The notes below the pieces were generated by a model, which ran no database searches, was not told the DNA's origin, and saw only the letters and a program-made list of their open reading frames with translations. From Amphiscolops sp. MND2022 (Eukaryota): 64,000 nucleotides of DNA. Both the position numbers and the translations under genes were made by a program. The stretch lies in the NCBI GenBank assembly GCA_964187785.1, contig OZ076409.1, forward strand, positions 7,690,001 to 7,754,000, in the 5' to 3' direction. This document shows positions 11,625 through 56,884 of this stretch, one piece after another (positions within the stretch are counted from its first letter, which is position 1; the number at the start of each line of letters is the position of its first letter).

Positions 11625-11960
11625 GAACTTATTGCAGCTCGCATTAATGCGAGAAGTTTTTGTACCGGGCTCCAATTTGTTGAGTTGCAAAATCAAGTTG
11701 GTCGAGTACTGTTGATTTTGCTTTTTTCGCTTGTGTTCCGTTTTTTTTTTTTGCCATTTCATGTAATTATCTCATTTGGTTTTATTCGCCAAATTTAATG
11801 CAACCGGCCTTGTTTTCTCTTCTTTTGTTCTTCATTCCAAGGTGCTCTACTTTATCAATTCGATTTGTTTTTCGACCCCATAATTTACAAATGGGGGCGG
11901 AAAATCATGATCTGTGATGAGTTTTTTTTCCAAATTTTGCCAAATCTCCACAATCTCCAC
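11625..11960 (+). repeat. Uninterrupted paralogue of the element B insertion site
   Basis: Matches 13198-13326 joined directly to 31652-~31866, with no LTR at the T-run. Confidence 0.85.
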
Positions 11961-13145: not shown

Positions 13146-13326
13146 TCATAACTCTCTCTCTTAAAGTAAAAATGGGAATAAGATCTAAGGGGAATAAGAA
13201 CTTATTGCAGTTCGCATTGATGCGAGACGTTTTTGTACCGGGCTCCAATTTGTTGAGTTGCAAAATCAAGTTATGTTGGTCGAGTACTGTTGATTTTGCT
13301 TTTTTCGCTTGTATTTCGTTTTTTTT

Positions 13327-13609
13327 TGTACTGACCTACATTAACAACCAATAGTATTTAGATGTTTATAGAATGTTCTAGAATGTACATTTATTTAATA
13401 TTGAATGACTGTAAAACTCTACTCCTTCAGCGAGAGGAAACTATTATTCAGTATTTAGTCGACTTCCTTTCTTCCTTTTTTCAGACCTCCAAGTTTTATT
13501 AGTGTTAGCTAGCTAGCATTGATCTGAGTAGTCTTGTCTTAAAACTTAGACCTGTACCATCTAGTTACAAGACCATCAACGTAAAAATTCAACTCTAAAA
13601 AGCAGCACA
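13327..13609 (+). repeat. 5' LTR of element B
   Basis: Direct repeat of 31369-31651, same length, with scattered substitutions; TG...CA ends. Confidence 0.95.
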
Positions 13610-13612
13610 ATT

Positions 13613-13630
13613 TGGTGCGACTTGTAAAAA
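13613..13630 (+). promoter_or_regulatory. Putative primer-binding site of element B
   Basis: TGG start 3 nt after the LTR end; cognate tRNA not identified. Confidence 0.5.
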
Positions 13631-13934
13631 ATCTCTTTTTCGCTGAATGATTTCTCTTTTCTCATCAAAACACAAACTACCACATCTTTTCTTGGAAATT
13701 CTTTCTGATTGCAGTGATATTTTTCTAGATTTCCTAGAAAACATATTCTGTACCTTTCTGAATTGCTTCAAAAAATACATCCTTGTTAGACAAAAATTTT
13801 CTCCATCTGAAGTATAATAAATATTCATCAACACCGGTTTATCACGTTTTTCTATAAACGTCGACTCGGTTCTCCTTCTGTTCTCTTCTTTGCCGGTTTA
13901 TCACGTTTTCTAACACGTTGATACGGTACATTTT

Positions 13935-14075
13935 CAGACTGATTCATCCACAGTGACACAGTTCTGCTCTTCTTTCAGACTGCTTTATCCACCACAGTGA
14001 CACAGTTCTGCTCCTTTTCCAGACTGATTTATCCATAGCGACACAGTTCTGTTCTCCATACTGATTTATCACAGC
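13935..14075 (+). repeat. Tandem ~40-bp repeats in the element B leader
   Basis: CAGACTGATT(C/T)ATCCACAGTGACACAGTTCTGCTC repeated 3-4 times. CCGGTTTATCACGTTTT repeats nearby at 13834 and 13893. Confidence 0.8.
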
Positions 14076-15483
14076 TATCCGGAAGCTCGTTGAAACAGTT
14101 TTTCTTCTGTCCGGTTTGTCAAGGTTTTCTAACACCTTTGACACGACAATAACTTCTTCAATCCTGCTATCTTGAACGTCAGGTGGACTCCTGGTGTAAT
14201 AGTTGGCTGAGTGCATGCCAGACTCACCTCACCTATAAGCACATACGTTCCAAGATTAACTTCGTGTTGGCAAAAAACCTGGATTTTCTACTCTTACGTT
14301 TCGGATCCATTTTCTAAAAAAATCTTCAAACAATTCTACATTCAGAATTAGCCTCTGAAACTCATAAACAGAAACCAAGTCTTTTAATACTTCTTTCGTA
14401 ACTTGTCTCTGTTAACAATACCAATACCATCCAATATTTTTAACAATCCAAAAAACATTTTAGTGAACAAAGCAAGCATACAATTTTAACGCAACTCTTT
14501 TGCCCTAAAATCTAAACTAAGACATGCAAATAAAACAGACACTGTAAAAATAGTTTTATACTCTCAGGCACCCGCAATTCCTGTTCCCTCCCGTAAGACT
14601 TAAACAATCAGATTCTAGCTTCTAGCTTCAACATCTGATTTTAAGGCTGACTAAACACCTTAGTTAAGTTTAAACGTCATTAAGGAGAATCTAGAGGACA
14701 CCGAACTACGTTCGAATCTTCGAAATTCTCAGGAAGTAAAAGTAAAAGTAAAAGCACAGAAGATCAATATTTGATCTTGATCAGTATTGATCAGTCTTTG
14801 GATAGTGGACGGTGATTGTTCAGAGTTCCACTCCCTTAGTCTTGAAAAACATACAACCCACTTAAAATTAAAACCTCCTTAGCTTTTCTGGACGTGCCAA
14901 TAACCTTATGTTAGACACCTTAATTGAAGTCCAGCTCTAAAAATACAACTCTCACTGGACGTGTCAGTGACCTTATGTCAGACACTTAACTCCAGACTAC
15001 AATCATAAGGTGATTCTGTTAACAATCCTTGAGGTTGAATACAGATTCATTTGCATCCGCTTTCTCTTCTCTATCTTTAACAACAAAACCCTACACAACC
15101 AAAATTTATGAATTCAAACACACATAATCGATCCTTGAATAATTCAACTCCTTTAAATCCACACTACGAACAATATTTTTTCTATATTCTGAACCAACAA
15201 CAAACTCACTCAAGATCACGAACTCAATATCTTCACAAAAAATTATTCCATACTACTACATCTCTACTTTTACCTTTTTAAATACCTCTTCAATTTTAAT
15301 CTAGAATATTGTAACCAAAAGCCACAATAAAAGTAACAACAAACCCCAATATTAAACTTAGACATCATTACATGTGGGAAAAGGTTACCACAATATTTCT
15401 TATCACCACATATACATTTTGCGTTCTTTTCCTCTTTTGCATATTGTTGGAAAAGTTACTCACATCAAAAAATAATCTTTAAT

Positions 15484-18400
15484 ATGAAATCTTCAAAATC
15501 GTCCCCTTCCCCTTTTGAAATACTTAACATTAAAAACACAAAAGTAGTAAAAACAGAAATGAAACCATTTCTAAACAATATTGTTTATAATTATACAAAA
15601 CCACTGTCATTTGAAAATGAACCCTACAGCCTTGAAACAATTCCTCTTATTAGAGAACATCTGGATACATATCTCTTCTATATTAGACATAGATCTACAA
15701 CTATATCTACAGAATTTCCAGCTTTTCAGATTACTTTCCCTCAACAAGAAACTTCTTCAACCCAAACATATAGAAGAACAATTAACCCAATTAATTTCAA
15801 GTTCATATTAAAGACGTTTTTTATGCCTTTTCAAACCAAGTAAGAGAATTCAATTTATCACTCGAAAATCCAAAAAATAGCCCAAATGCACTTCAAGAAA
15901 TTGAACGATACATACACAATTTTGAAGTAGAAGATATAGAAAGAATAGTTATATCTCAAGATAATCCTCATCATTGGTTACAAACAAACATAATACAAAT
16001 ACAAAGTTTCTCATATCATTATCTCAAAGACATAACATTGAACGAACAATCAATATCTCAAATCAAATTAATATCTTTATTCCTTAGAAAAGTTTTCAGA
16101 TTCAATCATCAAATAATATGGGCAGGAAAAGATCAAGCTGCGTTCACAGCATTCACAAATCATTTTACATCTGATGAATGTCTACCATTCATGATAAATA
16201 AAAAGAATGAACACCCTTATTTTTTCAAACCAGATAAAATAACAAAAGAAACCATTGACCTTGTATCTTTTGATCCTCGTTTGATTACAGAAAACAATCT
16301 TATTGATGATAACAGACCCTACCGTTATGAACAAAATAGTAAAAAAACAACAAAGTTTATTCACTAAAAATGAAAACTACAATGAAAACGATAACAATAA
16401 TGAAGAATACACTCTCGAAAATCAAAAATAAAAAACCGTAATGAAGCTATGGTACATCACATAAATGAAAATACTAGTGAATATACTACCCCAGAATCTA
16501 CTACTTCGGCACAAGATGCATCACAAGCTGGGACCTCAACAAACAATCACATTGTTAGAATTCCAACTAGAGTTGTTAGTCCAAGACCAATTACGTATGA
16601 TCCACAATCATATTCAGATACTTCTCCACGACGCAACATTACCTTCAACTTTCCCTCTAATTCAGATGATGAGATACAAGAGGAAACTCAAAATATAACC
16701 TCATACCGTATTACTTCTGTTGATGTCTCGTCACCTACAAGAACTAACCTCGATAATACACAAAATATAAAAACTACACAAAATATAACTCGATCTATGT
16801 ACGATGCTTCATCGCTTCCTTCTACATTTAAATATCCAAACAAAACAATTCGATCTGAAAATAATAATAATCAACAAACTTCTTCCAGTCGATATTATAA
16901 CCCATTCAACTATTCCTTTTGTCCACAATCTAATACAAATATTCAATCGAATAATGATCAAAATTCTTTTCAATCTAACAATAATCCAAATTTGTTAACA
17001 CATCACTCATTCCCACAGCCATTACCAACAAATTCCACACAAACAAACTCTTTCTCACAAAACCAAAGAATACCATATTCTAACATTGTACAATCTTCTC
17101 AAAGACGATTTCAAAATCCTCCACTTTCACATATATCTACCGACCCCTTATATCAAATGAATCAACATACAATTTACAACCCTACTCAAATTTCATCAAC
17201 TGTAAACATGGCACAATCCAATCTGTAACTCCTCCACCCCAGTATATACCGATACAACAAGATACATTCATAAATACTTCAGCTTCAATAACAGAACCTA
17301 TGAAACCTTTTGACGGTTTAGATAATTCGTACACCCCAGAAGAATATTTACAACAAGTGGAAGCAAGATTAACCTTTGCCATAGGTGAAGAACCTCAAAA
17401 TAATCCTGTAAAGTACAGATCATGGCATAATAGACGCATGGCATATATACAATGTTCTTTAATAGGAACAGCCCTTGACTGGTACACTAATCTTCACATA
17501 TCATATAAACAACAATGGAATCCATTTGTACAATTATTTAAAAAACAATTTTCTCAAAAAACAGCTTTTTACGCACAAGTAGAAGCTATGTCACTCATGA
17601 AAAAAGACAATGAGACAGTACGTCATTTCGCTCTTAGAGTACCACAGTTAGTTAAAAAGGGATGGTGTAATGAAAATGCAGCCACTATAAACTTCAAAAA
17701 TAATGAATTTTTTACAGAAGGATTACCTAAAAAGTTGAAGGATTTTGAACACAAAAGACAAGTTAAACACGTATCAACATTAATTGAACCGTCAAATCCA
17801 TTTCACACACGTGTTCGACATGTTGATTCTGAAGATATTGCTAACGAAAAAATCAGAACCATTGATTTAGCCTTAGAAATAAACAAAATATCCATTGACA
17901 ACGACATAAATGACAAGAAAGTAGAACATGACCATATAATTGGTTACTCAGCCTGGAGACCCAAATAACAAGGGTAAACCAGCTTATAAAAAATAATTCA
18001 CTTATTGTCATAAAAACAATCACGGTGTTTCGAATTGTTACCAAAAACAACGTGATGAAGAACACCAAAAATATAGAAATCCGAGACCAAGAACTCCCCA
18101 ACAATCGTTCGTACAAAACTTCCGTAGTAAACCTAGCAATTCTCAAGATAACCGAACTGAAAATAAAACTGATTATTCTTCTAGAGATAATGATTGTAGT
18201 AGATATAGCCAAAACTACTACCATAATGATAGATATAGAAATCATGATAGATACCGAAGTAACCTTAGAGATTATTCAAAAACAATTATATATCTAATTC
18301 TCGACAAAGATACTACATTAGATCTCAAAGTCCATATTCATCCAGATCTAGATATGACAACCATTATCAAAGAAGAACTCCATCCAGATCTCCATATAGA

Positions 18401-18540
18401 TCACCATACAGAAATATCTCTAATTACTGATATAATTCTCGATCAAGATATAGATCTCGTTCTCAATCACAAGGAAATTCCTTTAAACGATATAATTACC
18501 CATATAGATTTCCATCTAAACCAAGAGATAACAGATCACT
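15484..18540 (+). pseudogene. gag: Element B gag with long N-terminal extension, disrupted
   Basis: ORF 17300-17968 (MKPFDGLD...EEYLQQVEAR...LIGTALDWY...W..FVQLF) is a retrotransposon capsid-type domain. Partial Zn knuckle YCHKNNHGVSNC at ~18003-18038, then an Arg/Ser-rich tail. Upstream ORF pieces 15484-17228. Start uncertain. Confidence 0.75.
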
Positions 18541-21500
18541 GAAGTAAATCATCAAAATCGATCTTTCAATATTGAATTTGCAGTAGCATCAAATATAATA
18601 TTCTTGGAGCACCCTTCTTCAAGAAAAATATTCAAAATATAGACTTTCAACAAAATATTATGACTTATAAAAAACAACATCCAAAACTTCCACATTTTTC
18701 GACATTCACAGAAAAAGACTACCCATATATTTCGTACATTTATACCATCAATTGTAAAGAACCAATTCATTGTAAACCGGGGTCAGGAAAGACTATACAT
18801 TTCCCGATCAAAAATTATCTCAACTTACACTTTGAACTTGAAGATAATACTAAATTGTACCCATCAATTCCATATACATACTTTTTACAAAAATTTAAAG
18901 ATATTTTTCATTTCTTAGATATGATCATAAATGAAAAAAATAAAGACTCATGCTCAACAGTAATTCAAAATTTTACATCTCATCCAGCTACACTACCACG
19001 AGGAATTATTGGATACATAGAGATCCCTATTATTCAAACAACACCTCCTTGTTATAGAGTTCAAGACGTAAACTCACTCATTCATTCAGTAATACATACC
19101 TATCATCCTGATACTACTCTTCCAATTAAACAAAATGATTATACAGATATGAAATTATGTACTCAAGTAATTCCACAATCTTTATCAGAAAATAATAATA
19201 TGGAAATTAATGACAAAACACTTCAATTACCTATACATTCTGTCACAGGAAACCTTCGACCTTCAGATAAAATTAGAAAAGATTTTCCTCTCCTTCCATA
19301 TACTGCAGAAAATCAGCAATTTATAAAAAATTTAACTTCGAATACTCTGATTTGACCGATACTGAATTTGTAAATCTATGCAATATTCTTATGAATAATC
19401 AACATTGTTACGCTAAACACAAAAACGACGAAGGAAAAACATACCCCTTTCAGAATCAGAATTAAAGAAAACTGTAAACTGCAAACGCAAAGACCTTCCC
19501 TTCTAAGGTACCACTTCACTACAGAGATAGATTAAACAAACTCTTAACAGAACTTGAAAAATATAATATAATAAAACAAATTGGCTCTTCATCAGATGAG
19601 AAGCATACCACTGGAACAACATTTAATCTAAACCCAATAATTATTATCCCTAAAGGAGATTCAATAAAAGTTGTTCTAGATGCAAGACATTTAAATTCAA
19701 ACGCAAACCAAGAACTTGAATCTTGGCCCATTGAACCTTTAGCCCCTCAATTAGCCAGAGCTAATAAGAAATACAAATCAACCATTGACTTAATGTACGC
19801 ATATGCGCATACTCCATTAGATGAAAAAACAATCAAACTCACAGGATTTTCATCCGGAGACAAATTATATACCTTTATCCGTGGATTCTGTGGATTAAAA
19901 GGACTCCAATCTTTTTCACAAAACGGATGTCAACTTTCTTTCGATCACTCATAGATAAACGCTCTGCACTTGTGTATATTGATGATATAATATCACTAGC
20001 AGATGAAAAGCAAGAAATGTTTGAACTCATCAAAGAACTTCATAAAATAGCAACAAAAGAAAATCTCCAACTTGCACCTGAAAAATCATTCTACATGTTA
20101 CTTAAAGTAAAATTCCATGGACATGAAGTAGGAAATAACACCATTAAACCAATCCAATCAAAAATTGAAGCCATTAAAAAAGTCCCATCACCAAAAGATA
20201 AAAAAGGATGTTGTGCAGTTTTTAGGAAGTGTAAACTTCTATTCAAAATTCATTGAAAAACTTCATATAAATCTCAAACCGCTATATACCTTATTACACG
20301 ACGATGTAAAATTCCAATGGACACCTGAACTAGAAAAAATATTCCAAGATGTTAAAAATTCAATGACAGCACACTCCGAATTAACTATACCCAATACAAA
20401 ACATCCATTTTTCATAACAGTTGATGCTTCCTTAGTTGGCTTAGCCGCAGTCCTATTCCAAATGAATGAAGAAAATAAAATGAAAGTTACTTCTTATAAC
20501 TCTCGAATCCTCAACACCCAAGAACAAAACTTTCTACATTAGACCGAGAACTTCTTGCAATAGTCTATGCATTACAAATATATGAATTTCTCATCATTGG
20601 ATCTCCTCATCCAATATATATAATTACCGATCATAAACCTTCATTACACTGTTTTGCCAAAAAAGGAAACCTTAGCCCAAGATTTTATAGAGCACAAATG
20701 CAACTCACAAAATTCTCAAAACTCAAGATCATTCACACCCCTGGAAAAAATTTAACTGTAGCAGATATGCTTTCAAGAACTTTCACCAAAGAACAACTTC
20801 AAATACATCAACTACGACATAAACAACTGCCACCTCAAATCTATTTTTCTAATGAGAAAGACGATCAACTCAAACCTGTAAGTTTTTAGGAAAACAAGAA
20901 GAAATAAAATACAATCGAAAACATTATTGCCATCCAATTCTTGCAGACTATGGAGAAGACCAATTTTCCATTCGAATAAACAACAGAGGAGAAGATATTC
21001 ATATGAAACCTTTGGATTCATTTTCTTTTCAATCGATTGTTCCATTTGAATCTGAATACAAAAGACCCACAAAAAATAAAACAAAATCACTTCTACAACA
21101 ATCAACTATCCTTAACAACACTGATATTCTGAAGATGAAATTAATCATTCACAAGATACAAAAGATCAAAACACAACTACATTAAGAACAAACTCTTGCA
21201 ATACAATATCCTACCAAATCTGATTATTGCAATCAACAAGTTCCTTTTTTCGACCCATCATTTATTAAGTATAAAAAACACTTTAATTAATTCTTCCTCC
21301 CAGAAGGTACCCCACTAACAATCGAAACTAAAAAATCACAACAAAAACACGATCCCGTTCTACAAAGAAATTATCATTGGTTACAAAATAACGAAAAACC
21401 TTTACAAATAGATCCAACAATAGCAACTAACAATAACAACTAACTCTTTTTTATCACAAACTTTATTTTTATACTACAAACTTTTCCACCAACTGTACAT

Positions 21501-23130
21501 AAACCATGAAACAAAAATCATCCGCATAAAATATTCCAATATACATGACTCAAACCCTAATCCAAACGACAAAATATGTTTACCATTTAAACTCTTTCAT
21601 GCAGCTTTCAATACACTCCATGCACATGGACACTCAGGAATTAAAACTTCCATAAAAATTATTAATCAATTTTTTTATACCATTTTTAAATGAATGGATG
21701 TCAATATTCATTCATGATTGCATTGCATGTCAACAAAACAAACATATTATCCAAAAAATTCAAACTGCAACAATACAAACATTTTCAGAAAATGCTTCAT
21801 ATTTTAACTATCGAAAATCAATGAATACAAAAGGCCCAATAAACCCACCAACCCACCATCTAATCAAAACTCGTATATTCATGTGATAGTAGATGCTTTT
21901 ACCCACTTTGTAGTAAGAGTACATATTAAACAAAACAATGACTAAAACGCTGTCAACTTCTTACTACATCATTGGATCACCAAATTTGGACCTCCAGTAT
22001 GTTTAGTTACAGATCGTTGTTCAGAATATATTAATTCTGAACTTGCAAATCTTTGCACTACAATGGGAATTAGACATTCACCAAGAACACCTTACGCACC
22101 ATGGACAAATGGTTTAGTAGGAAACCAAAATAAAAATCTTGGAACCCATCTTCGACTTTTCTTACATAATACACCAGAAAACTGGTCTACTCAAGTCCAT
22201 ATGTACGCTTATGCACATAATTCACAACCACTCTCTGGAATAAATCTTTCGCAATACGAAATAGTATTTCACACTATACCGAGAATCCCCATCAATTTTG
22301 AACTCATCCTCCAACGAGACACTTATAGAAACTGCACATCTCAATTTTGTCAAAATCTACCACTACACACACATGATAAATCAAACTTAAATCCCTTCTT
22401 CCATAAAATCTTATCAAAACCAATTCCACAATGGATTTTAGCTACGGAAACAGCTATGATACAAATTTACCATACAGTATTTGAAAATACAAAAAGAAAA
22501 AATAAGTCATTTGTTTATTTCAACAAAACATATAATAATGCAAGACCCTTAGACATCGGCACTTTTGTATTAAAAAGAAATTTTCTCCATGTTCATTTTT
22601 CAGACAAACTGAAACCACTTAGAATTGGACCATTTAAAATCATCTATAAAATTTCTGACATTACATATGAAATTGTTAATCAAGATGGTTATACTTCTCA
22701 TATACATAGAAACCATTTAGTTCCTTACTATCCAAAAGAACCACTCATTTTTCCTTTCATACAAAATTTCAACCCACATTCCTCTGACAATAATACTGAT
22801 AATAATAATTCAAGTACGAAAGACTCGATAAATCCTTTTATATCTTTTTCAGATGAAGAACATTTAGTTGAAGATGAAATTACAAATTCTAATAAAGAAA
22901 CGGAAATACCATCCACAATTGACTTCCAACCAGAATCATTTAGCAAATACGCCTCAATTCCATATAAACAAAATAAACAGCAAAATAGTTACACAGACTC
23001 TGAAGACCAATCTAATATCCACGACTATGACAATTATATTAACCCCTGAAGACACACCCATGACAGATACCATTTCGGCCCACAACCACGAAAAGACTAT
23101 CAACTTTTCCTTGGTGAAAAGGACATAAGT
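18541..23130 (+). pseudogene. pol: Element B pol (protease C-terminal remnant, RT, RNase H, integrase), disrupted
   Basis: NILGAPFF (protease C-terminus; DTG part not found). RT motifs VLDARHLN, IDLMYAY and YIDD (~19975). RNase H ITVDAS. Integrase CIACQ, PWTNGLV and IGPFKI. Many frameshifts. Confidence 0.92.
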
Positions 23131-23373
23131 TCATTTTCTCAAAATTCCTGCTGAATGAAAGTTGAATGAAAAAGTAAGAAATAAGTAAAGGTAAATAGTA
23201 ACCCGAAGAAAGAACACTAAAAAGAAGATTGCATTAGTGAAGCTTATGATTAAAAAGGTGAACAATAATACTTCAAGATTGATAGCCATACAACTTCACC
23301 TTCTTCAACTAGAAACAATTCATCATCTAGTTCAACTCATTCATTCCAAACATTACCCGAATAAACAGCATAT

Positions 23374-24671
23374 TTGAATTCAGATACAGACATACTGGAT
23401 TCCTCACCCTCAAATCCTAGTCCTACCGCTCCATATTCTCCCGATAGAATAACAACAACACCTAATAATACTCCAATACTTCAAACTCAAACAACAACAG
23501 CTCAATCACAAAATTTACCGTTCCTAGAAACTAATTCACCTGCAAGTGACTCATGTGATGAATCGCTTACCTCTAATGTGCAAGATACGTCAAGTATCAT
23601 AAATAGACCCCCTCTTCCACCAATTCCTACTACGCGTACTTTACATATTCCTGAGCCTGATTCAGATCTTCAATACAATAGCTCCTGTTCACACAGAATA
23701 CCAACTGCCACAAAAACAATTAGAAAAACTCCTATTCCAACACTACCAAAAAACACTCCTATACCATCAACAAGTCAAACTCCAATTAAAATTATACCAG
23801 AACATACAACTAATTCACCATCTGATATAAGTTCATTTTCATTCTCTCAATTATATCCAAAACTAGAACGTCTAAAATCAAGCACCAACTCATCTTTAAC
23901 AGATTTATACCATAAAGATAAAGACTCTGATTCAACAGCTAGTACCCGAGTACCAAGTCACAGTTATAACCTTAGGTCTCAACCACGAAAACTTTCTCAA
24001 GAATTATCATCTTTAACTAGTTCTAGTACAAATTCAAGACTAGTTAGACAACAAGCACAACCCAGATCAAATATTCTTTTTCTTTCCTCATCTCACCTCA
24101 CAATACCATCATCCTTATCAATACCATTTCAAGTCACATCAGGATTTGAATCAGCATCTCTCATTTCAGAAGATCCCCTTACTATATCAGATAGCGCCGC
24201 AAATTTCTCACGAGTTTATTCTCCTAGCTCAATATTATCTGATTCATCAATACAATTACCTGAATACTTCTTAGAAGTATTTTCGAGACCTCCTACACCA
24301 AACCCACACGAATATCCCATCCGTGTTAACTCAACGATTATTCGTACTCTTAACGAAGACCCTCGATATACAGTACTCCCTCTTAGATTTATAAATAATA
24401 GCTCTCTCTCTCAAACTCACGAAAACAAAGGGAACTACAAAGACTAAAAGAAACTCAATTAACATTAAAATTTGAAGTCGAAGTTACATTCAACTCTTTA
24501 AACCTTCATCCATTTTCTCTTTCAACAAGAGTAGCACATAAAACAACTTCTTCACCATTCATAGTCTCTTCAATCTCTTATCTTTGTGACGCCGAACTAC
24601 CAGAAATTAGAACTGGACACATAAACTTCTTTAATCCCTATTCAGGACTTAATTATAGAACTATTATTTAA
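23374..24671 (+). pseudogene. Extra ORF of element B: Ser/Thr/Pro-rich protein with a probable frameshifted globular C-terminus; function unknown
   Basis: 357-aa low-complexity ORF 23374-24447 between integrase and env. Coding-like sequence continues in another frame to just before the env ATG. Confidence 0.5.
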
Positions 24672-24673
24672 AT

Positions 24674-27198
24674 ATGATAGACATACTTTTCATTACATAT
24701 ATCGTATATCTAATACACCTAACTAATACGACGTCAGTTCCAAAAGCTGATACAACAAATCCGGAAAACCATATTTCACCACAAGACCCAAACATAACAA
24801 ACCTCATGGTATCTCATTATGACTGTGCAAAACAAAATAACTTAAGACAATTTAGTTTACTAAATGTTGAACCATATAAACAAGCACCCTCAGATATACA
24901 ACATTCAAAAACACAAGCAACAGTTTATGTTAGAGTAAAAGCAAAAAGAATCAAAGCTTTCAAATGCAAAGCATTTGGAAAAACAGAAAAAGTTTGGTGT
25001 TCCCAAACATTTTCATCCAGCAGACGATATGATCGTTTACAATGGGGACAGAATACATTAGAACTTCCAAAAATACTATAACCTATTGAATGTAAAATAT
25101 GATAAGATTTTTAAACGCAACCGATAGTAATGAATTAAACAATTACAACATACAAAGTTCCTTCTCATTTTTTGTCCAACAACCATTTAGAATAAACGAT
25201 GTAAATGCTTGGCAAATTGGACCATTCGTATATGATGAACGTCACCAAGACTGGATAGTTAATTTTACACAAAATCATTATTCAAGATGTAGAAGCGACA
25301 GAGAACATTTAATAACCCGACAAAGTTGGAAACTTAGAATAACCAATGCTGAAATAACCTATGATGATAAAAATAACCAACTGATTCATGATGGATACAT
25401 ACTACCATGTTATCACTCCGACGTATTTTGTAAACCCACTACAAGAACTCTATATATACTAACATGGTTTGATGAAAAATTTTGTCTCATATTTAGATTA
25501 CAGGAATTCATTGGAAGAATGACAAGAATCAAAGACCGTTATCGGATAGAAACAGATAATTTTATCGATTCCTCAAATATTACAAAACACCTTCAGACTG
25601 AAGGATCAAAAGGAACAAAATATCCCAATGTCAAAACACCACAATCAACTGTAGACAACCCAAGTCTTTCTCGAATTGAAATATATCCCATTGCACAAAC
25701 TTTTTGTGGAAAACTAGAACCACTATTTTCAACACAATACGAAGACATTTTTGTTACCTATTCAGACGGCTTTGATATGAACACTGGACAACCAAAACCA
25801 CATTCAATAATAGACCAAAATATAAGTGAAAAATACAGTTTGATAATTCTAATAAAAAATATATATTCCCTGCATTAAATAAATCAAATAATTTTGCGAC
25901 AATAAATTAGGATGCTCATATTAATACCAAAATTGATTTCACAATTAATCACGTATTTAAATCAATGACAGTACAAGAACTAAACACTCTCCACACAGTA
26001 TGTGAACTAGAAAGAACACAATTGTTAACAATCTTAGCTATGTCAGTTAAGAACCCTCAATTAGCCGGTTTCCTTTTAACAGGAAATCGCAGTAACTTTC
26101 ACAATGTAGAAGGATCTACAGCATGGCTGTATGATTGCCCTCATTTAATATCGCCATTATACAAAGCAGACAAATGCTTTGATAGAATCCCTATACATTA
26201 TAGAGAAACTATCATCTATGTAGACCCCATAACAAGACAAACTTTTAATTATGCTACACCAATAGAATGTGGAAATAATCACAAAATATTATTGAATTAG
26301 ACCCAGATGCAGACGACGGAGATTTCTATGTGTTAACACCAGACCCGCTGAAAAGGGAACCACCACAAATGTTTAAACCAACTCAGATAAAGACAACAAT
26401 AACACCCAATACATTCACAGCTCAAGACGCCGGTATTTACTCAAATGGAATGCAAAATTGGATCAATTCTGGAATAGAGTATTATTCGCTAATTATTCAG
26501 ATACAACTCTCCAATTACTTGGAAAATCATTAAGTTACGATTTCATTACAATGCACAATGAACAACATTCCCACACCGAATCAAAGCCTTATAATCATTT
26601 AAGGATTGGATTACATGATCATTTGTTATATTTATTACCATGTTTTAACCCTAATTGGTTCAGTCAAGCATTCATTAATATATTTGGATATCCATGTTAT
26701 ATTTTAACACAATGTGGAATTTATCTATCTACCTTTCTTTTTATAAGAGAAGTTTTAACTTTCCTTCTCAGATTTTACAGGACAAATAGTATAAAACATA
26801 AACTCCAAAGCAACATCTCCATTTTGAGTTCAATAGCCCATGGATTTTTTAAAATAGTCACATCGGAAATGGTTACCGATTTAAATAATACAGGAAAACG
26901 CAAACGGATAAACACTAAACACAAAATTACAACAAGTGAAAATGATCATATCCTGTTATCCGAAAAAGAAACAACCAGTGAAATAAGAAGATACTCTGAT
27001 AATGACTCCCCTTATTTACCTCCTAAATATACAAGTAAAAATTCAACCTTTCAATCACCAAAAAAGACACACCCAAACAACATTAATGATATTAAAACAT
27101 CTCAAAATTCCCAAGATTATGACGCCTTAGTAAAAGATGTAATAGCTTCACCGGAAAGCCCCGCAAAAGTTTTCATAAAATTTAATTCCTCCCATTAA
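24674..27198 (+). pseudogene. env: env-like glycoprotein of element B (chuvirus-G/gB-type class III fusion protein-like), frameshifted
   Basis: N-terminal hydrophobic signal (MIDILFITYIVYLIHL), SHYDC...FSLLNVE, CELERTQLL...NPQLAGFLL...EG...DC...CFDRIPI...VDPITR...C, AGIYS, a C-terminal hydrophobic segment and a tail. Spread over ORFs 24674-25081, 25099-25878, 25965-26300, 26330-26533 and 26458-27198. Confidence 0.8.
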
Positions 27199-27853
27199 GA
27201 AAACATAATAAACAAAAGGAAAGGATAATAACCAAATAAAACAAATGAAGCTCTAAAAAAGTTCACAAAATTGACAACGAATGACCTCACAAATTAACTT
27301 TCATTCTACCCAAAACTTCTCACTTGGACAGTTGCTCAGCTCAACTCAACCCAACAACTTCACTTGGAACGATCCTCCGCTCCCTCTAAACAGCGAAATT
27401 ACAGAAGTCTCTATTCCGGGAATAGATGCCACTGTGATTGTTGATGTTTTGAACTCACAACTGACCAACAAACATTCCAATATTGTAAATACAATTTAAA
27501 CCTCAATTTTATAAAAACTCAAAATAAAAGAACAAAAACTCCTCAGTAATTTAAACTTAACCATAATATGTGGTAAAAATAAGTATTTTAGCGCTACAAA
27601 ATCACGCAAGTTAAAATGGAATCCTTGCCTGAAATTGATGTAGTTAACTCTAGTCCCTCTGAATTGCTTGCATCCCCTTTGAATATAACTATTCAACAAA
27701 ATGTTAACGAAGATAATAATTCATCTTCACAAATCCAAGAACCTATGGAAACATTCCAGTTGAACAAATTGATCATATAAACGCGAAATCTCAAAAACGA
27801 AAATACCCCGACATAACCGCAGATAAACCTTTTATGGAATCTGGCGCTTGTCC

Positions 27854-28595
27854 TCCTTTCATGAAACCATCAAAACAAGATGAAGATCAAGATTGTGATT
27901 TAATTCCTATTTTATCTTCAAGACAATTTACATTTCAATCTCATTTAACTTCTTTTTATATGATTCCAACAAAATACAAAGTCATCATCAGGGAATATCA
28001 AAACGACTATCATACTTCAATTGCCTCAAAATTAGTTACCCCCATATGATTAGCGGTTAAATAAAAAAGTGAAAATTTTCTCTCTTCAATATAATTTCCT
28101 CAGACCATCTCCGTATGATCTCAGAACTGAAGAGAATGATGCTAATTTCTTGCCATACCAAATAAATGAATAGAATTCTAATAGATTTATGTCCGAAACT
28201 AGTATGTAGATATTTATGTAGGAAGATATCAAATCTGAATGAACCACAGAACATCTTTTTAGTCGGCACTTTTACTGAAGTCTTCCTTTCATGAAACCAT
28301 CAAAACAAGATGAAGATCAAGATTGTGATTTAATTCCTATTTAATCTTCAAGACAATTTACATTTCAATCTCTTTTAACTTCTTTATATATGATTCCAAC
28401 AAAATACAAAGTCATCATCAGAGAATATAAAAACGACTATCATACTTCAATTACCTCAAAATTAGTTACCCCCATATGATTGGCGGTTAAATAAAAAGTG
28501 AAAAGTTTCTCTGTTCAATATAATTTCATCAGACCATCTCCGTATGATCTCAGAACGGAAGAGAATGATGCTAATTTCTTGCCATAACAAATAAA
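27854..28595 (+). repeat. Direct ~312-bp duplication (27854-28166 and 28284-28595) separated by a ~115-bp foreign insert
   Basis: Both copies run TCCTTTCATGAAACCATC...TGCCATA(C/A)CAAATAAA. The spacer matches 32243-32355. Confidence 0.9.
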
Positions 28596-31368
28596 GAAAT
28601 CTCACCATGTTACCTACCAAAAATTTCTTCAATACAAAGAACCTGAAAACTATCTTTTCTTCAATTCAAAATGTACATCGCCTTTCACTTTAAACGCTGA
28701 ATACCTAATAGATCACACAAAAAGAAAAGGAAAATTAGGAAATTACGATCCATTGAAACAAAATTTTCTCTTCCTTCCAAATGAAAAACCAAAACCAATT
28801 ATAGTACAACAAGAATATCTCATTCTAAATGATGATTCGTTGTTACAAGAAGATATACCCAAAGGTATATCTGACACTCTTCCTCCAATTCAACCCATTT
28901 CCTACCAACCTCTTGGAGATTGTGAAAAATCTTATTATTACGCCATAGCAAAGAAGGGATATTCAAATAATGAATTATTATTCATTATTTCGCATCTTAT
29001 TTCAATGCTTACAAAAGGAAATATGAAAGAAAAAGAACAAATCAAGAACCTTCAAAGAAACCAACAAATGACATTCCTAAACCAGAAAGCTTCCCTCCTA
29101 CCGAAGAAATACACAAATACAAACAATTAATGGACATTTCAAAACCATATCATAACCCCAAAAAAGATATACTCATTACTGTTACTGATATAGTAAATAC
29201 ACTCGAACAAGCCCGAGACCTATTGGAAAATATGACATTTGATACGACAAGAATTAGCCAATCAGCTTCGTATGTACGAACATCCTTGGATGAAATCAAC
29301 TACATATCTTAGTAGACGTAAAAACTCCAACAATCTTAACTGGTAATTATGGATAATAGCTTTAATAATTTTAACACTTGACTCTTAATCCCGTAACAAC
29401 CTGTCGAAACTAGCTAGTACTTACTCAATAATACTCGCTGAACATATTCACAGCCTATATTAACCAATAAAATACAGCTCTAAAATGAAATCATATATTG
29501 TTTTAAAATGGGACATAAAAAGTTTTTAAAAAACGCTTCAAATGCTCCTCCTTTTAATGAACCGATTTTAACGAATAAGGCCTCAAATGAACGATATTTA
29601 ATTGCGCTTCAAAAGACTTCCAAAATACACTAACTTGATCTAAAAATTAAAAAGATATAACACAATAAAATATATCAAGAAAATGTCAACGATAAAAATC
29701 TAAATTTAAAGGGAATTCAAATGTAAACAAACTAATCTATTTCAGTTGCATATCTTCAAACTTCGTCTTCACCTCTTCCTTTTTATCTCAAACCCAGTCT
29801 CAACGTCCTTCCACTTCGAAAATTTGCAATTACCATTTCACCTCTCCCATCACGATGACTTCAAACAATTCCATGCAGCCCCCAATTGCTTCAACCCGCC
29901 TTCGGTCTCTTATTCTGAAAAAACATTTATCCACGTTATATACACAAAAGACCCAAGAAAATAAGGCAGATCCACAACTAACAAAGATGATTCTCTTCAA
30001 TATATTCCAAATTTTCCAAATAAATAAAATAAATTTTCAGCAATACCTTATATTGCATAATCATCCCGATACTTTCATTCACAAATGTGATTCCACTACT
30101 CAAACGGATTATACTACCATCCGTCCAAAAGCCTTTTCCAGAAACCTCTCCAATAGAACCTGTACCTCATTGGAAAAAGAAAAAGTAGTATCTTACTGGC
30201 CATCGGATGACAATGATTCTACCGATGACGAACTTCAAAAAGATCCCTCTGAAGCGACATTAGACGAGAGTTCTCCACATAAAACATATACGTACATCAC
30301 ATTCTGCAGTTCACCGAAGATCACAACAGCACTCGCATATAGCCCATCATCAACTGTTTAGACCCACTGATCGCCGCCCATCAACACCAAAGGAATTGCA
30401 GTTGCAGCAGAAGTCCAACATCATTCCGCACTGACGATCCCAAATTGCCGCTTGCAGACCCAAAATTGCCGCTTTTCTCCAACTGGCCCATCATCGACCC
30501 AGCGAATTCAGAAGTCAAGAAGACCCATGAGATGATAATACGAACAATAATATAATTTGAAAACAAAACCATGACAGAAAACATTGTACTTGATTAAAAT
30601 CTTAAACTTTTCTTCAAATAAATTTGTATTAATTTATTAGTAATTTATACAACACCCACCCATATTTATTCGCCCATTTCTAACTTTTATTCAACCAACC
30701 GGACAATTATTTGCTCGTTTTTAAAGAATAATTCTTTATTTTTTTTCGGTGCATTTCAATCCCAAAAGAAATTTAATTATATGTAAACAAATTCTTTTCA
30801 GAATTTCAACAAAAACTAGCTCAAAAATTGATCAAGCACATTGTTCAATTTCAATTCGAATAATGAGAAGCCAACTTTTTTAAAGTTTTCAACATTTCTT
30901 ACATAACACACCCGCCAAAGTTGAAAACAACCTGAAATCTTTTCAGACAGTTTTCATACTTTAAACGATAAAATTGTCAACAAAACATTTTCTTTGACTC
31001 TTTGAAATTTAGCTCATATGATGTTTTGCTCACGTTTGTTAAATGCAAAGTTAATTCAGAACTTCAACAGAGGCATAAAATAGAGCCGCTACCAGTTCAA
31101 AAACAAGGCCTGAAAGCATAGTGAAACAGACCACTTTGATGCCTTTGAACTATAGTCGCACATATGAGGTCTAAGTTGTCACATTTTGATAGACAACTCG
31201 AGGTCTACCATTGAGTCGAACTTACACCAATCTAAAAATAGACTTATGCCAATCAACCATCAAAATGAAATTTGAACTAACGTTCAGTTAATGCTTAAAA
31301 CATTTACACAAAATTTTTTTTTATTAATGTGATATAAAATTTTTATTTTATTTGAAAACCGGGATGGA

Positions 31369-31651
31369 TGTACTGACCTACATTAATAACCAATAGTATT
31401 TAGATGTTTATAGAATGTTCTAGAATGTACATTTGTTTAATATTGAATGACTGTAAAACTCTACTCCTTCAGAGAGAGAAAACTAATAATCAGTATTTAG
31501 TCGAATTCCTTTCTTCCTTCTCTGAGACCTGCAAGTTTTATTAGAATTAGTTAGCTAGCATCGATCTAAGCAGTCTTGTCTTGAAACTTAGATCTGTACC
31601 ATCTAGATACAATACCACTAACGTAAAAATACAACTCTAAAAAGCAGCACA
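31369..31651 (+). repeat. 3' LTR of element B
   Basis: Direct repeat of 13327-13609, preceded by the PPT-like GAAAACCGGGATGGA. Confidence 0.95.
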
Positions 31652-32334
31652 TTTTGCCATTGCATGTAATTTTCTCATTTGGCTTTTTTCGCCAAATTTA
31701 TTGCAACCGGCATTGTTTTCTCTTCTTTTTGTTCTTCATTCCAAGGTGCGCTACTTTATCAATTCGATTTGTTTTTCGACCCCATATTTTACAAATTGGG
31801 GCGGAAAATAATGATCTGTGATGTGTTTTTTTCCCCAAATTTTGCCAAATCTCCACAATCTCCCACAAATTCTGTCTGGTTTGCACAGAAGAAACCTCCA
31901 GTTTTTTTTATTATCCATTTTATGTTCTCCTTTTGCGAATTGTCGTTCGTATTTCTCACTATTTTTCGCTGTGATCAATGAATTATTTTCCGTGTTATCT
32001 TGTGGTGTCTATGTTTAGCACAGGTGATTTTCTGGCATCTTCGGTTGTTTGTATAATTGGTTCGGTGTTGTTACTAATAGTTAACGATAATAAAAAATGT
32101 CTGACTGGACCATGTTGTATTTTTATAATTGTATTGATGAAAAAAAATTTGGATCCTAAGAACTTTTCTATAATATCTGCATGGTTTCAGCAAAAAGATT
32201 ATCTATTATTGAGTCCGTCGTATGATAGTGATCTATTGGTTGTGAATAGAGTTCTAATAGATTTATGTCCGAAACTAGTATGTAGATATATATGTAGGAA
32301 GATATCAATTCTGTATGAACCACAGAACATCTTT

Positions 32335-32811: not shown

Positions 32812-33189
32812 TGTTCTTTAAGTGTCAAACCAGCTGTAGAGACAACGGTGTGAGCGTTTGTAACCAAATGAAATCTTTTATTCGTAGAAAACATTAAAAT
32901 GTTTCAATCATGAAAGTGTATTGAGGGGGGGGGGGGGTTGTTGGTCAATTGGTGCGAAATGGTCCAAAAAGAGTTGATACAACTGTCGGTTACATGTTGC
33001 TTTACACCAATTTTACTTCAAATGAAGCATCTTTACACATCAAGAAAATCGACCGAAAAAAGTGAATCGTATTCTAACCATAGGTTTGCATTTAATTTCC
33101 ATATTGAGTCATTGAGTGAAATAATATCGCTTTAAGTGAGCTCTAGACTGCAAATGAAGGGTAACGAGGCAACACAATTTCAGTTCAAA

Positions 33190-33908
33190 TGTAACGTCCG
33201 CCTCTGGCATGACAAATTTCGATGAAAAATTCGAAATGTGCGACATCGCAATTCAGCAAAAAAGATGGCCGACCTAACAGGAGCGGAAATAAAGAAAAAC
33301 AAAAAAAGAAAAGAGAGAGCACGCTGAAGAGAGCAAAAAAGAAAGGAACCAGAAAGCAGAACGACTATTGACATGAAGATTCGCACAGTGCCGAATGTGA
33401 CGAGTGCATACCGGTGTTATGCCATCCCTCTGGGAGAGAATGCAAAACCGTTCCAGAATGGCATGACTGGATCCCCGAAAACCTACAAGCAGTAACTGTA
33501 CTCCCCTTTGGGGCTCATCCCCCTTAATTTGTTGATTTGTAATGTATTTTGCTGTTTCGCTTATGCCTGACCTTCTAGATCAGCATTTCATATCCTTAAC
33601 TGTCAAAATGGTACTTTTTGGATAAACACTTTTGGACCTCGGAAGTATGTAGGAAGTCGTAGGAAGGCTTGGGATTATGTAGGAACGTTTTTACAGGCTT
33701 GTGGGGCGTGTCCGGACTTTGAGAGTGCCGGCACGTCGCCTCGGAGCTCTAACTAGAGGAGCCTCCTTAGACGTTAGAAAAGTCCCCCATGGAGACCATT
33801 TTGGGAGAAAAGCCAGTGTCTAGGAGTGTAGTAAGACAACGGTCTCCTGTTTAAGCACCCTAGGCATTGTCCCACTTCCGGGATGTGCGCCGCTAGCCGG
33901 ACGTTACA
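33190..33908 (+). repeat. 5' LTR of element C
   Basis: Matches 51753-52472 with only a handful of differences seen by eye. Confidence 0.96.
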
Positions 33909-33924
33909 TCTGGAATAGTTTTTA

Positions 33925-33942
33925 TGGCGACCACAGAGGGAT
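33925..33942 (+). promoter_or_regulatory. Putative primer-binding site (tRNA-Arg-like) of element C
   Basis: TGGCGACCACAGAGGGA resembles the complement of animal tRNA-Arg 3' ends (recalled as TGGCGACCACGAAGGGA). It lies 16 nt downstream of the LTR end. Confidence 0.5.
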
Positions 33943-36900
33943 ATTTTTCCCTACCGCGTCCTGCGAGGAGCAACTCCTGCTTTCCGGCCCTGTAAGGTCC
34001 GGATCTAGGAGAAGCTTTTGGGAGGGTCCTAGATTGTTTTTACTGCCTTTTTCTAGCCCTTTGGGCCTTGTATTAGAGTTTTTCCTGCGTTTCCTGCATG
34101 TTTCCGAGGTCTCCAGCCTGAAAAAGACAGTTTGAAACAGTGTACCCCCTTGCACCTTATCTGTACTTGTTAAAAGAGCTATTCCGGCCTATCCGGAACG
34201 TGTTTTAACGGGTTTTCCAGCTTCTTTTCAGCTAATCGGCAATGTACAGGGACTGCGAGGACGGTTCGTGAAGACCCGAGCTAGCTGAGTGCAGGACTAC
34301 AGGTGCTTCACGTCATAGCCTCTTCCTCCCCACCTGGTGCCGATTCACCAAAGACAGCTGGGTTATTTCGTTCCCTTTACGTTTTATAGCCCCAAATTAG
34401 TATTCCCAGCTCTGTTTTTGCATAAACTAACTGAGAAAAATACCCACAGGGTGTTTGCATCAGTTATTTTAAAGTTTGAGCTCGAAAACATCGAAAATAA
34501 TACTAATAATAGCTCAAATATCGAATTTTCCCGTTTTGGAAGCCAGAATTTTGTAGAATTGTATACGGCCTATGGGAATACCTGAAAAACGTTCTGTCAG
34601 ACCTACCAGGTCGAGAACAAAATTTTTTGTTGGGCTGTTTTTTTTTGAAAAACTTGAAAAATTCAGCAATTTTTGTTTAAAAATCGGCAAAATTGGCCAT
34701 TTTGACCGATTTTGGTAAGGGCAAAGCCTTGGGCGTTTGTTCCCAAGCCTCTTGAACGGCCCAAAAATTTTGGTGTTGAGCTTGGTAGTACGCAATACTA
34801 CTACCAAGACGGTTTTTGACTGCCCCTAATATAAATTGAAGTTTTAACATCACTTTTCTTTCATTAAAATAGACCTGAGTGAAGGACCCCCATAGACCTG
34901 AGTGTTATTGAAATCAAATTAATTATTGCAACTACCCCAGCCCCCTGAATAAAGTTATTACGTGTCCTAACTCTACTGATAAAACCAAACGGAACACCAG
35001 AGAACCGAAAAAACATCGGGTTATTGACGAAAACACGTATTTTCAGTACTGTTCCGAGGGTGTAAAAAGTGCAATCGGAAAATTTTGTGAGAGACCTTGT
35101 TTGAAACCTACCAGGTTTTGCTTGCCTATTTACAGTTAATAGAGAGCGTAACGTTGCAAACGCCGAAAACCGCAAGCATTTCTGAGCAGTGGTTGTTGAG
35201 AAATAGTCGAAAACGCACAATTTTTGCGTCAATTTCGGAATTCGGCAACCTCGTATTTTCAACAAGTCGAAATCTCTCCTAACAGGAAGAGCTAAAAACG
35301 GATTGCACCGTCGTGTAGAGCGCAAAAAGTTACGCTAGTAGCGTGATTTTGATAGCCCTACTGTGAATACCCGCAGAGATAACTTAGCCGCAGTTTTGTT
35401 CAGAAAGTGTACCAAATTGCCGAAAAATCGAAAATTTGATTGAGCCTGGTGTGATATCTCCGGGATATCCCGGCACCCTAATTTTCCTATTTTCGTCCTC
35501 GGGGTACCAAATCCCGACGATTTGTGCAATTTGAGCAGCCGACTACCAGCCGAAGCTGAGAAATTGACATTTTTGTGATTTTTGACCCGAAAAAGTGGTA
35601 CCTCTGGTACATCAAGGTTTTGTCACTTCGGATCGCCCGATATTAATCCAGGCACCTCGCCGCCAGACTTTTCTGTTGCGTGAGCATAAGTTACGCTCGC
35701 ATGCGAAATTTCGGGTAGCTGGGACGCCTAGGACGCGAGTTACACCACTTTTTGCGAATTTCACGACATAGTCAATTTTTCGGTAAACATTGTTAAGTGG
35801 CCGCAACACCCATTGGGTCACTTTTGGCGCAATCGGAGATTAATTCCCCACGATTTAGCCAGTATAATAGACGGTGTGAAATTTTCAGGTCGCTAGCAGC
35901 ACTAGAAGTGATTTTCACCTTCCCCGGAGGTGCTACTTGACGAGAAAAACAGCGTTTCGGATGAATTTTGACTGAAAACCCGCGCACTTCTAGTCCTGAC
36001 GTGCCTCACTCAGGGCTGAAACGACCTGTTTAGCGCATCAAGCAAATCCCACACGGCTCACTGAACTTACAAAATCCGCGTAGGGTTGGCCCCAAGACCA
36101 GCGACCTCCCACTAAACACTCTACGAGACTAAGAGACGGTAACCCTAAAAACCGAAATTCGTTTCTTGCCCGCCACCAAAGTCGCCTAGGTGCAATTTGC
36201 TCGCTATAACCACATGTACTCTGCGCCTCGTGTACCCTGAGGATGCGAGAGTGTGCCCGGGAGCACCAAAGCAGTCACAGACCAGGTTTGCGGGACGCGT
36301 AGAGAAAGTAGAACAAGTACGGAAGAGACCACCCATATCGTTGTAAACTCTTTTACCCACGAGCCGTGAGGCCATAGACCAGGGTACCACTCAATACTCA
36401 ACCCCCACGTTCCCAATCAATCCCCAGATCATTCCCCGTCCATCGCCCATCCATTGTTCCCGAATCAACCTCGTCGTACAAGCGTATAAAACAACCTAAA
36501 GTGACCCCCACTGCGCTCTGCGCGGGGGATACAAAAAGAAATCTCCGCCGACGAGTTTGAAGCTAACCCAATAGTTTTCAGTTAACGGTAACAGCAAGGC
36601 CTGCGGTCACCTAAAAGTAGAAGTCAATTTGGCGTGTAGTAATCTGTAGTTGTGATCGCCAAAAAAAAACTGAAAAATTTTTGCTAAGAAAGCCAAACCT
36701 TCTCTTAAGTGAGGGAAAAGCAAACGAAATTTTAGTTAAACCAACCAGCGATAGTGTGCCTAGTGCACTCCGAGAGTGCAGGAAGGAGTTCAAGCCCACA
36801 TAGTAGGTCTCAACCTCAATACACAAGAGACCGGCCACTCCGAGCGGCTAGGCACGCCGAATAGCTTAGTAGGTTAGTTAGTTAGTGCAGTTTAGATAGT

Positions 36901-37066
36901 ACCCCTTGAGTCATTCAGCCAAAGCAAACCCTTCTCACTCCATCATTTACCACTTGTTTTGCGGGGGAAGGGAGTAGAGAGAAATCAAAAAAAAAATTTT
37001 TTGCTTGTTGCGTGCCGCGTGGAAACTTCGTACGCAGCGCGAGCTACAATATCTCATCCCGTGGCC

Positions 37067-56786: not shown

Positions 56787-56884
56787 TTTTGGGATCTTTG
56801 AACATTTCAAATTGATTTCCTTTGACTATTTGTCTTCAATTCAAATTCTTGACCCTGCAAATCGATCGTTTTCACTTGAGAAAG

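Follow-up and report, generated by a model that had tools for sequence, protein, structure and literature searches.

A predicted class III (gB/chuvirus-G-like) env gene in an inactivated copy of a probable giant Ty3/Gypsy-type endogenous retrovirus-like element of Amphiscolops sp. MND2022

Analysis of a 64,000-nt stretch of the genome of Amphiscolops sp. MND2022 (assembly GCA_964187785.1, contig OZ076409.1, positions 7,690,001 to 7,754,000; hereafter, the window) showed that the region 24674-27198 represents the env gene of a retroelement copy which is old and inactivated. Stop-to-stop reading of the 24.6-27.2 kb region gave one protein in five successive pieces, which lie in frames 2, 1, 0, 2 and 1; the frame changes were placed near 25079-25096, 25827-25833, 26279-26282 and 26449 by tblastn with an intact relative as the query, and an in-frame stop codon was found at 25908-25910. 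The core piece of 129 amino acids (aa), 25911-26297, matched the family PF24664 Monjiviricetes_fusion with an E-value of 5.1e-13 and 48.3 bits, the curated gathering cut-off being 27 bits. Since this core matches PF24664 and the same frame is open in other copies in the genome, the observation cannot be attributed to chance. An earlier note on this DNA had described a dead env copy with a signal peptide, a series of motifs, a transmembrane-like segment and a tail; all of these were located (Table 1), although in the start motif given as YDC-x7-FSLLNVE the C and the F are separated by 8 residues and not by 7. The at least four frameshifts that it had counted correspond to the four frame changes, to which one in-frame stop is added, and the five broken pieces recovered by tblastn agree with its description of the copy as dead.

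The env pseudogene lies within an 18.3-kb element, 13327-31651, bounded by a pair of long terminal repeats (LTRs) with TG...CA ends and about 91% identity. The order of the element is LTR, gag-pol, ORFx, env, ORF-A, ORF-B, LTR (ORF, open reading frame); accordingly, env is located after pol and inside the LTR pair, as had been noted before; the two genes are, however, separated by an ORFx remnant of 1.4 kb. The ends of the element are fixed by a paralogous empty site, in which both flanks occur joined. The target duplication of the window element falls in a T run, where its length is uncountable. The primer-binding-site (PBS)-like stretch is the same in the window and in an intact copy on C13, and its core is also common to a second lineage described below. 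No internal LTRs around env were found in the repeat comparison of the window. The empty-site paralogue is located 1.5 kb upstream of the element; the flanks of the copies on C13 and C7 are likewise copies of one repeat. Between the empty site and the element, a reverse-oriented ORF, 12511-13068 (minus strand), resembles by eye the N-terminal gag region of the element and suggests that debris of this family is nested there.

The following order of Pfam domains was found in the intact gag-pol of 2620 aa: Retrotrans_gag, RVT_1 (1503-1628), RT_RNaseH_2/RT_RNaseH (RNase H, 1691-1823), Integrase_H2C2 (the integrase zinc domain, 2110-2158), rve (2179-2274), SH3_Tf2-1 and Integrase_p58_C. The integrase thus follows the reverse transcriptase (RT), and the same domain order is present in the window remnants and in the second lineage. 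Pfam matched no protease family in the family's own ORFs, gag-asp_proteas being matched only in a metagenomic relative, contig L022. The best solved relatives of pol were Ty3 Gag-Pol 7q5b (E 1.8e-53) and Ty3 RT 4ol8 (E 3.9e-37), followed by caulimovirus, foamy virus and other retroviral chains, in a ranking of the solved chains of the PDB. SH3_Tf2-1 and Integrase_p58_C are families of the Ty3/Tf2 type. Peptidase_A17, DUF1758/1759 and DUF5641 are protease, gag and integrase families of the BEL/Pao type, and none of them was matched by Pfam at E ≤ 0.01 in the full polyprotein of either lineage; NCBIfam gave generic transposase-type integrase matches alone, all below the cut-off. Termini of the Ty3/Gypsy type are present, namely, TG...CA ends of the LTRs, the PBS-like site by the 5' LTR and, in the C13 copies, 4-bp target duplications. 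Judged by these sequence features, the carrier is probably a Ty3/Gypsy-type LTR retroelement, and the designation 'Gypsy element' in the earlier note is supported by the Pfam domain order and by the Ty3 chains as the best solved relatives of pol.

Intact env copies in the genome match PF24664 with E-values of 1e-21 to 6e-26 (76.7-96.1 bits). All 24 aligned env relatives match this family and no other fusogen family, and a profile search returned PF24664 proteins alone, mostly those of this genome's family. The ESM Atlas neighbours of env are, in order, PF24664 clusters, gB and rhabdovirus G. The most hydrophobic stretches of Env, residues 4-26 and 706-724, fit by position a signal and an anchor, so that the layout comprises a hydrophobic N-terminus, an ectodomain of about 650 aa, a moderately hydrophobic anchor and a tail of about 130 aa.

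The AlphaFold2 model of a natural intact 858-aa env copy, built with 23 relatives, contains long beta hairpins (88-122), a 45-residue central helix (437-481) and a C-terminal helical anchor. Of the PDB chains compared with this model by Foldseek, 103 matched at E ≤ 0.001; all the matches listed are herpesvirus gB, the best being gB of herpes simplex virus 1 (HSV-1), 9e5v (E 2.7e-12). In BFVD, 184 matches at E ≤ 0.001 were obtained; the best is Soybean thrips chu-like virus 4 (2.7e-29), the top ten include Tacheng Tick Virus 4 and Wenling crustacean virus 14, and dermapteran chu-related virus 142 is also among the top rows. These proteins are the glycoproteins of negative-strand RNA viruses that are chu-like or related to such viruses; rhabdovirus G and gB follow. 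In VIA-align, gB occupied the top 31 rows, the highest Z being 10.7 over 428 aligned residues. Accordingly, the earlier designation of a chuvirus-G/gB-like class III envelope is supported both by the PF24664 match and by the fold matches to chu-like G, gB and rhabdovirus G; in the fold search which that note had proposed, no class I or class II fusogen and no cellular fold appeared among the Foldseek or VIA-align matches listed. By family and predicted fold, Env is a class III fusogen of the gB/chuvirus-G type.

The search of the 1.07-Gb genome with the 129-aa env core gave 6568 first-look candidates, and 150 hits were scored. All 150 have E < 1e-77, and 55 of them contain at least 860 open env codons. 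In the search for RNA evidence, none was listed for the env of a C13 copy. Env of natural copies comprises 856-858 aa. In intact copies, a single gag-pol ORF of about 2650 codons is followed by ORFx (489 codons), env, ORF-A (435 aa) and ORF-B (about 200 codons). Two copies on C13 are 99.7% identical across 18.3 kb and have different 4-bp target duplications (TTTA and AGCT); the LTRs of one of them are identical (238/238). The window copy has about 79% DNA identity to the young copies, as compared with 88% among the young copies themselves, and its nearest database relatives are shortened ORFs with 85-89% amino-acid identity. On these grounds it is assigned by sequence to an older, decayed sublineage, its LTRs being about 9% diverged. 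The many open env frames and the identical LTRs of some copies indicate that the family is, or very recently was, active.

A second env lineage (P0019 type), with env 54-55% identical, is represented by 12555 first-look candidates in the genome, and no stop was found in 31 of the 50 scored hits. Its copy on C3 (in the region 82488001-82514000) is 18.8 kb long, has identical LTRs (340/340) and contains gag, pol (which overlaps gag in another frame), an ORFx-like frame of 477 codons, env, a relative of ORF-A (35% identity) and a further ORF. Between the two lineages, env is 55% and pol up to 54% identical. The sequence P0077, considered as an ORFx-env fusion, was rejected as such and represents a rearranged env duplicate. 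The coding strand of every copy examined (window, C7, C13 and C3) contains 9-11% G and 30-39% A. G-to-A hypermutation of the window copy was likewise dismissed: of the differences specific to the window, 164 are G>A and 253 are A>G, and the G-poor composition is common to all copies.

Comparison of env between the sublineages with 863 and 870 codons gave a synonymous divergence (dS) of 0.31, a nonsynonymous divergence (dN) of 0.027 and dN/dS of 0.07-0.09, while within one sublineage dN/dS was 0.26-0.65, as expected for decay after insertion. For the other ORFs, dN/dS was 0.12 (ORFx), 0.09 (ORF-A), 0.16 (ORF-B) and 0.04 (integrase). These values indicate purifying selection, between the sublineages, on integrase and on env, ORFx, ORF-A and ORF-B; the last four genes were therefore needed during the divergence of the lineages.

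The ORFx frame lacks an ATG codon both in the C13 copy (489 codons, L021:842-2308) and in the C3 copy (477 codons, L041:942-2372, minus strand). In three diverged copies, 1, 3 and 1 ATGs were counted in all three frames of ORFx, against means of 7-9 after codon shuffling, and the observed counts were reached in 3, 74 and 13 of 5000 trials, respectively; by the same test, no avoidance of ATG was detected in env, ORF-A or integrase. In 4/4 copies seen, the env ATG is located 0-30 nt past the ORFx stop. ORFx may thus serve as a leader through which ribosomes arrive at the env AUG, either by scanning or by reinitiation; translation of ORFx itself would then require an initiation codon other than AUG or an AUG supplied by splicing to an upstream exon. 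No Pfam family was matched by ORF-A or ORF-B. For ORF-A, the sequence search of the PDB found no chain at E ≤ 1, the ESM Atlas gave no usable match and the AlphaFold2 model had a mean predicted local distance difference test score (pLDDT) of 38.8. Comparison with the downstream ORFs of metagenomic relatives revealed no detectable homology (hhalign probability 0.06), and the best 120 of 447 homologues of ORF-A are all 68-100% identical proteins.

Taken together, the region 24674-27198 is very probably (about 0.9) env of a giant, 18.3-kb endogenous retrovirus-like element of the Ty3/Gypsy type, present here as an inactivated copy. In an intact element of this kind, genomic RNA would be transcribed from the 5' LTR and would give Gag-Pol, and tRNA-primed reverse transcription would be followed by insertion by the integrase. 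Env would be produced from a subgenomic, probably spliced, mRNA; to arrive at the AUG of env, the ribosomes would cross ORFx, which is depleted of ATG. Gag particles bearing Env trimers could then carry the element from one cell to another, such as from soma into the germline, as with Drosophila gypsy and ZAM. The window copy itself is capable of none of these steps.

A number of observations weigh against this interpretation. Searched by sequence with the env alignment profile, the PDB gave no chain at E ≤ 10. The confidence of the Env model is moderate (mean pLDDT 62.6, predicted TM-score 0.38), its TM-scores to gB are 0.14-0.34 with root-mean-square deviations of 13-17 Å, and in VIA-align gB is followed by rabies virus G (Z 8.1) and Mokola virus G, at about Z 8; the program itself describes Z 7-8 as common background. 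Because the TM-scores are low and the deviations large, the predicted fold is evidence of shared domains and not of a reproduced domain arrangement or conformation. The signal and the anchor are modestly hydrophobic (Kyte-Doolittle 1.4-1.6), the proposed splicing and ribosome scanning are deduced from ATG counts only, and the very high copy number could also stem from purely intracellular retrotransposition.

The last point leads to the reading that Env is conserved for a function other than infection from cell to cell, the element spreading only within cells and Env serving, say, superinfection exclusion or host benefit. Thousands of copies are typical of retrotransposon bursts, and the weakly hydrophobic anchor would be in accord with such a role; however, the env copies under purifying selection are carried by elements of two sublineages and do not represent a single host locus, and the layout of signal, ectodomain, anchor and tail is kept together with the predicted class III fold, so that this reading is considered unlikely. 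Still less credit is given to an env foreign to the Gypsy element, that is, an env of BEL/Pao (Anakin-like) origin, a nested insertion or a free-standing endogenous viral element (EVE) between the LTRs. BEL/Pao elements were the first to be linked with the Chuviridae-like glycoprotein (in the accessible part of PMC7642597), and EVEs often have flanking LTR fragments (in that of PMC10084718). The colinear order of pol, ORFx, env, ORF-A, ORF-B and LTR in the window, C7, two C13 and C3 copies, as well as the position of env in contig L022, colinear with pol, together with the lack of internal LTRs around env and of BEL/Pao-specific Pfam families at E ≤ 0.01, makes such an origin scarcely credible.

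The earlier note had proposed an independent envelope capture, and a recent event of this type, in which the Gypsy lineage of this host took env from an exogenous chuvirus-like RNA virus, would account for exogenous chu-like virus glycoproteins as the best structural neighbours of Env and for the mostly viral nature of the nearest ESM Atlas clusters; the available part of a 2023 survey of arthropods, moreover, reports no clear Gypsy capture (PMC10084718). The search of representative sequences with env gave 1958 relatives at E ≤ 0.001, but among 1.8 billion representatives no env relative outside this genome's family exceeds about 34% identity, and the search of viral contigs found none encoding an env relative. 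Env relatives with 22-32% identity are encoded by eight metagenomic contigs, and in both contigs that reach far enough (L022 and L028) env follows Gypsy pol. The order in L022 is gag, PR-RT-RNaseH (PR, protease), IN (integrase), env and two mutually paralogous ORFs; in L028 it is RNaseH-IN, two ORFs (295 and 1032 aa), env and one ORF. Env relatives at 22-31% identity thus already reside in Gypsy elements, the pol of which is 33-34% identical, and the complete six-ORF layout is common to both lineages of this genome, at the env and pol divergence given above. Since diverged env relatives are located beside similarly diverged Gypsy pol, env and pol appear from these comparisons to have travelled together for a long time, and an ancient association is also argued in the text seen of PMC13524379. 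The claim of an independent capture therefore found no support, and a recent capture is regarded as improbable.

The preferred reading, an endogenous retrovirus-like Gypsy element with its own env, has published precedents. In the part of the work available here, Chary and Hayashi (eLife 2026, PMC13524379; bioRxiv 10.1101/2023.10.26.564294) describe 1512 env-carrying Ty3/gypsy elements across metazoans, with ENV of the F type or the HSV/gB type. According to the same part, 114 elements have a Chuviridae-like glycoprotein, env and pol have co-diverged in an ancient association, and the bridge region contains a 'mini' domain in ancient clades as opposed to a 'pseudo' RNase H in insect clades. 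The novelty implied by the earlier note is thus not sustained, as Gypsy elements with env of the gB type are already published there; its statement that the Env of insect errantiviruses is F-related holds in part, since gB-type env is also present in insect errantivirus clades (both from the sections seen of PMC13524379). Similar to the gB-type errantiviruses of that work, as far as described in those sections, the present elements have the order LTR-gag-pol-env, Ty3/Gypsy pol, a predicted class III Env, an env ectodomain flanked by signal and transmembrane segments inside one LTR pair, multiple near-identical intact copies and env co-diverging with pol. They differ in size, 18.3-18.8 kb against roughly 8-9 kb in the one table part of PMC13524379, and in the presence of a 1.6-kb ORFx between pol and env and of two conserved ORFs after env. 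The PBS partner of this family, ...GTCGCACCA, is not among the 190 tRNA ends given in the available material of PMC13524379. The screen described there admitted regions of up to 10 kb with a POL-ENV gap of up to 500 or 1000 nt; the present family spans about 12 kb from gag to env with a pol-env gap of 1.6 kb and would be excluded by these filters, because both values exceed the limits. Motif searches in the supplement of PMC13524379 were uninformative, the sequences in the portion seen being those of domains I-II only.

Other known systems resemble the element in part. The mosquito BEL/Pao elements, Anakin among them (Dezordi et al. 2020, PMC7642597, in the part available), share an env of the Chuviridae-like family within an LTR retroelement, but the carrier here is probably Ty3/Gypsy and not BEL/Pao, and marker families of arthropods are lacking in the present host; the portion seen of PMC12440569 lists errantivirus and Anakin captures only. 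Glycoproteins of Jingchuvirales/Monjiviricetes share the PF24664 family and the predicted fold (BFVD E 1e-24 to 3e-29), but are genes of exogenous negative-strand viruses with 11-15% identity in structural alignments. Chuvirus G is modelled as gB-like in the accessible part of bioRxiv 10.64898/2026.08.30.748148. Herpesvirus gB is similar to Env in predicted fold over model residues about 55-655 (Foldseek probability 1.00) and differs in sequence, with 9-12% identity and no detectable sequence match. The Drosophila errantiviruses, about 7 kb long, contain three ORFs. Drosophila gypsy, ZAM and Idefix are also Ty3/Gypsy elements with env downstream of pol, and the soma-to-germline logic proposed here would, by analogy, be the same; their Env is of the F type, class I-like and related to baculovirus F and paramyxovirus F (from the part seen of PMC13524379), while Env of the present family is predicted to be class III.

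The env finding itself confirms the published pattern, namely, that class III, gB/chuvirus-like Gypsy envelopes are widespread in invertebrates. The family belongs to the more extreme examples: its copies number in the thousands, fall into several sublineages and in many instances have an open env frame. The clear purifying selection argues that Env is used by the element. Three further conserved genes (ORFx, ORF-A and ORF-B) are carried, the unusual stretch without ATG that precedes env suggests a mode of Env expression open to testing, and large enveloped retroelements can be missed by size-limited screens. As to the host, the genome was found to contain neither an insect odorant-receptor domain nor an arthropod cuticle domain. 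In the mitochondrial COX1, 11 TGA codons are in frame, and AGR, ATA and AAA stand at motif positions of Ser, Met and Lys, respectively; this points to the invertebrate mitochondrial code and hence to a bilaterian invertebrate other than an arthropod. As a tentative extension, somewhat less probable than even, the 18-19 kb elements may represent an undescribed, very recently active clade of 'complex' enveloped Ty3/Gypsy retroviruses in a non-arthropod invertebrate, with six conserved genes and with the ATG-free ORFx as a scanning leader or termination-reinitiation platform for Env, absent from the published census because of its limits of 10 kb in size and 1 kb in gap.

Table 1. Positions of the features of the 18.3-kb element, its env pseudogene and its insertion site in the window, and of two ORFs in an intact copy (L021)
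Feature	Position	Strand	Basis or remark
Paralogous 'empty site'	11625..11958	.	left flank (as at 13198-13326) and right flank (as at 31652-31863) contiguous
5' LTR (TGTACTG...GCAGCACA)	13327..13609	+	direct repeat with 31369-31651
PBS-like stretch (core TGGTGCGAC)	13610..13630	+	directly after 5' LTR
gag-pol remnant, at least 10 frame changes	15592..23151	+	tblastn of intact 2620-aa gag-pol (C13 copy)
Capsid-like domain of gag-pol remnant	about 17447-17656	+	Pfam Retrotrans_gag
RT of gag-pol remnant	about 19906-20130	+	Pfam RVT_1
RNase H of gag-pol remnant	about 20318-20715	+	Pfam RT_RNaseH_2, RT_RNaseH
Integrase of gag-pol remnant	about 21589-22722	+	Pfam Integrase_H2C2, rve, SH3_Tf2-1
ORFx remnant, Ser/Thr/Pro-rich, between pol and env	23272..24671	+	tblastn, 70-88% identity to intact ORFx; one frame change near 24405-24429
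env pseudogene, predicted class III (gB/chuvirus-G-like)	24674..27198	+	stop-to-stop reading, Pfam, tblastn
Signal-like hydrophobic N-terminus of env (ILFITYIVYLI)	24683-24715	+	after ATG at 24674
YDC motif of env	24818-24826	+	
FSLLNVE motif of env	24851-24871	+	
PF24664 core of env	25917-26273	+	Pfam
CELER motif of env	26001-26015	+	
CFDRIPI motif of env	26175-26195	+	
DPITR motif of env	26223-26237	+	
GIYS motif of env	26432-26443	+	
Transmembrane-like segment of env	26713-26769	+	
env tail	to 27195	+	stop codon 27196-27198
ORF-A remnant	27616..29303	+	tblastn
Internal duplication in ORF-A remnant	27850-28166 and 28280-28595		95.6% identical
ORF-B remnant	29885..30301	+	tblastn, 62% identity
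3' LTR	31369..31651	+	
ORF-A in intact C13 copy, 435 aa	L021:5366-6670		
ORF-B in intact C13 copy, about 200 codons	L021:7070-7666		

As to the primer tRNA, the pattern built from the PBS gave genome matches at the control level, and a second pattern gave 18 matches in the genome versus 2 in the control. The sequence TTCGAGCCTCACTGGTCGCA and its close variants (C3:85600639-85600658 and 17 other places) complement the PBS of the second lineage. These sites resemble the T-arm and acceptor end of a tRNA; the one locus that was read contains a T-arm-like piece only. ARAGORN detected no tRNA in any of 4 loci examined, and in the window itself neither the Rfam scan nor the tRNA scan gave a match.

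The rest of the window is densely occupied by further Gypsy elements, and no host gene was seen. A second giant Gypsy element, 33189-52472, is 19.3 kb long, has 720-nt LTRs with 99.2% identity and an interior GC content of 50-58%. ORFs of 708 and 489 aa are located after its pol, neither with a Pfam match; the 708-aa ORF gave only chance-level rows in the sequence search of the PDB, and the 489-aa ORF contains one strongly hydrophobic segment. A third Gypsy element, 56816-63468, extends to the end of the window and contains open gag (588 aa) and pol (1440 aa); an inverted fragment at 159-1031 is 69% identical to its region 59986-60869.

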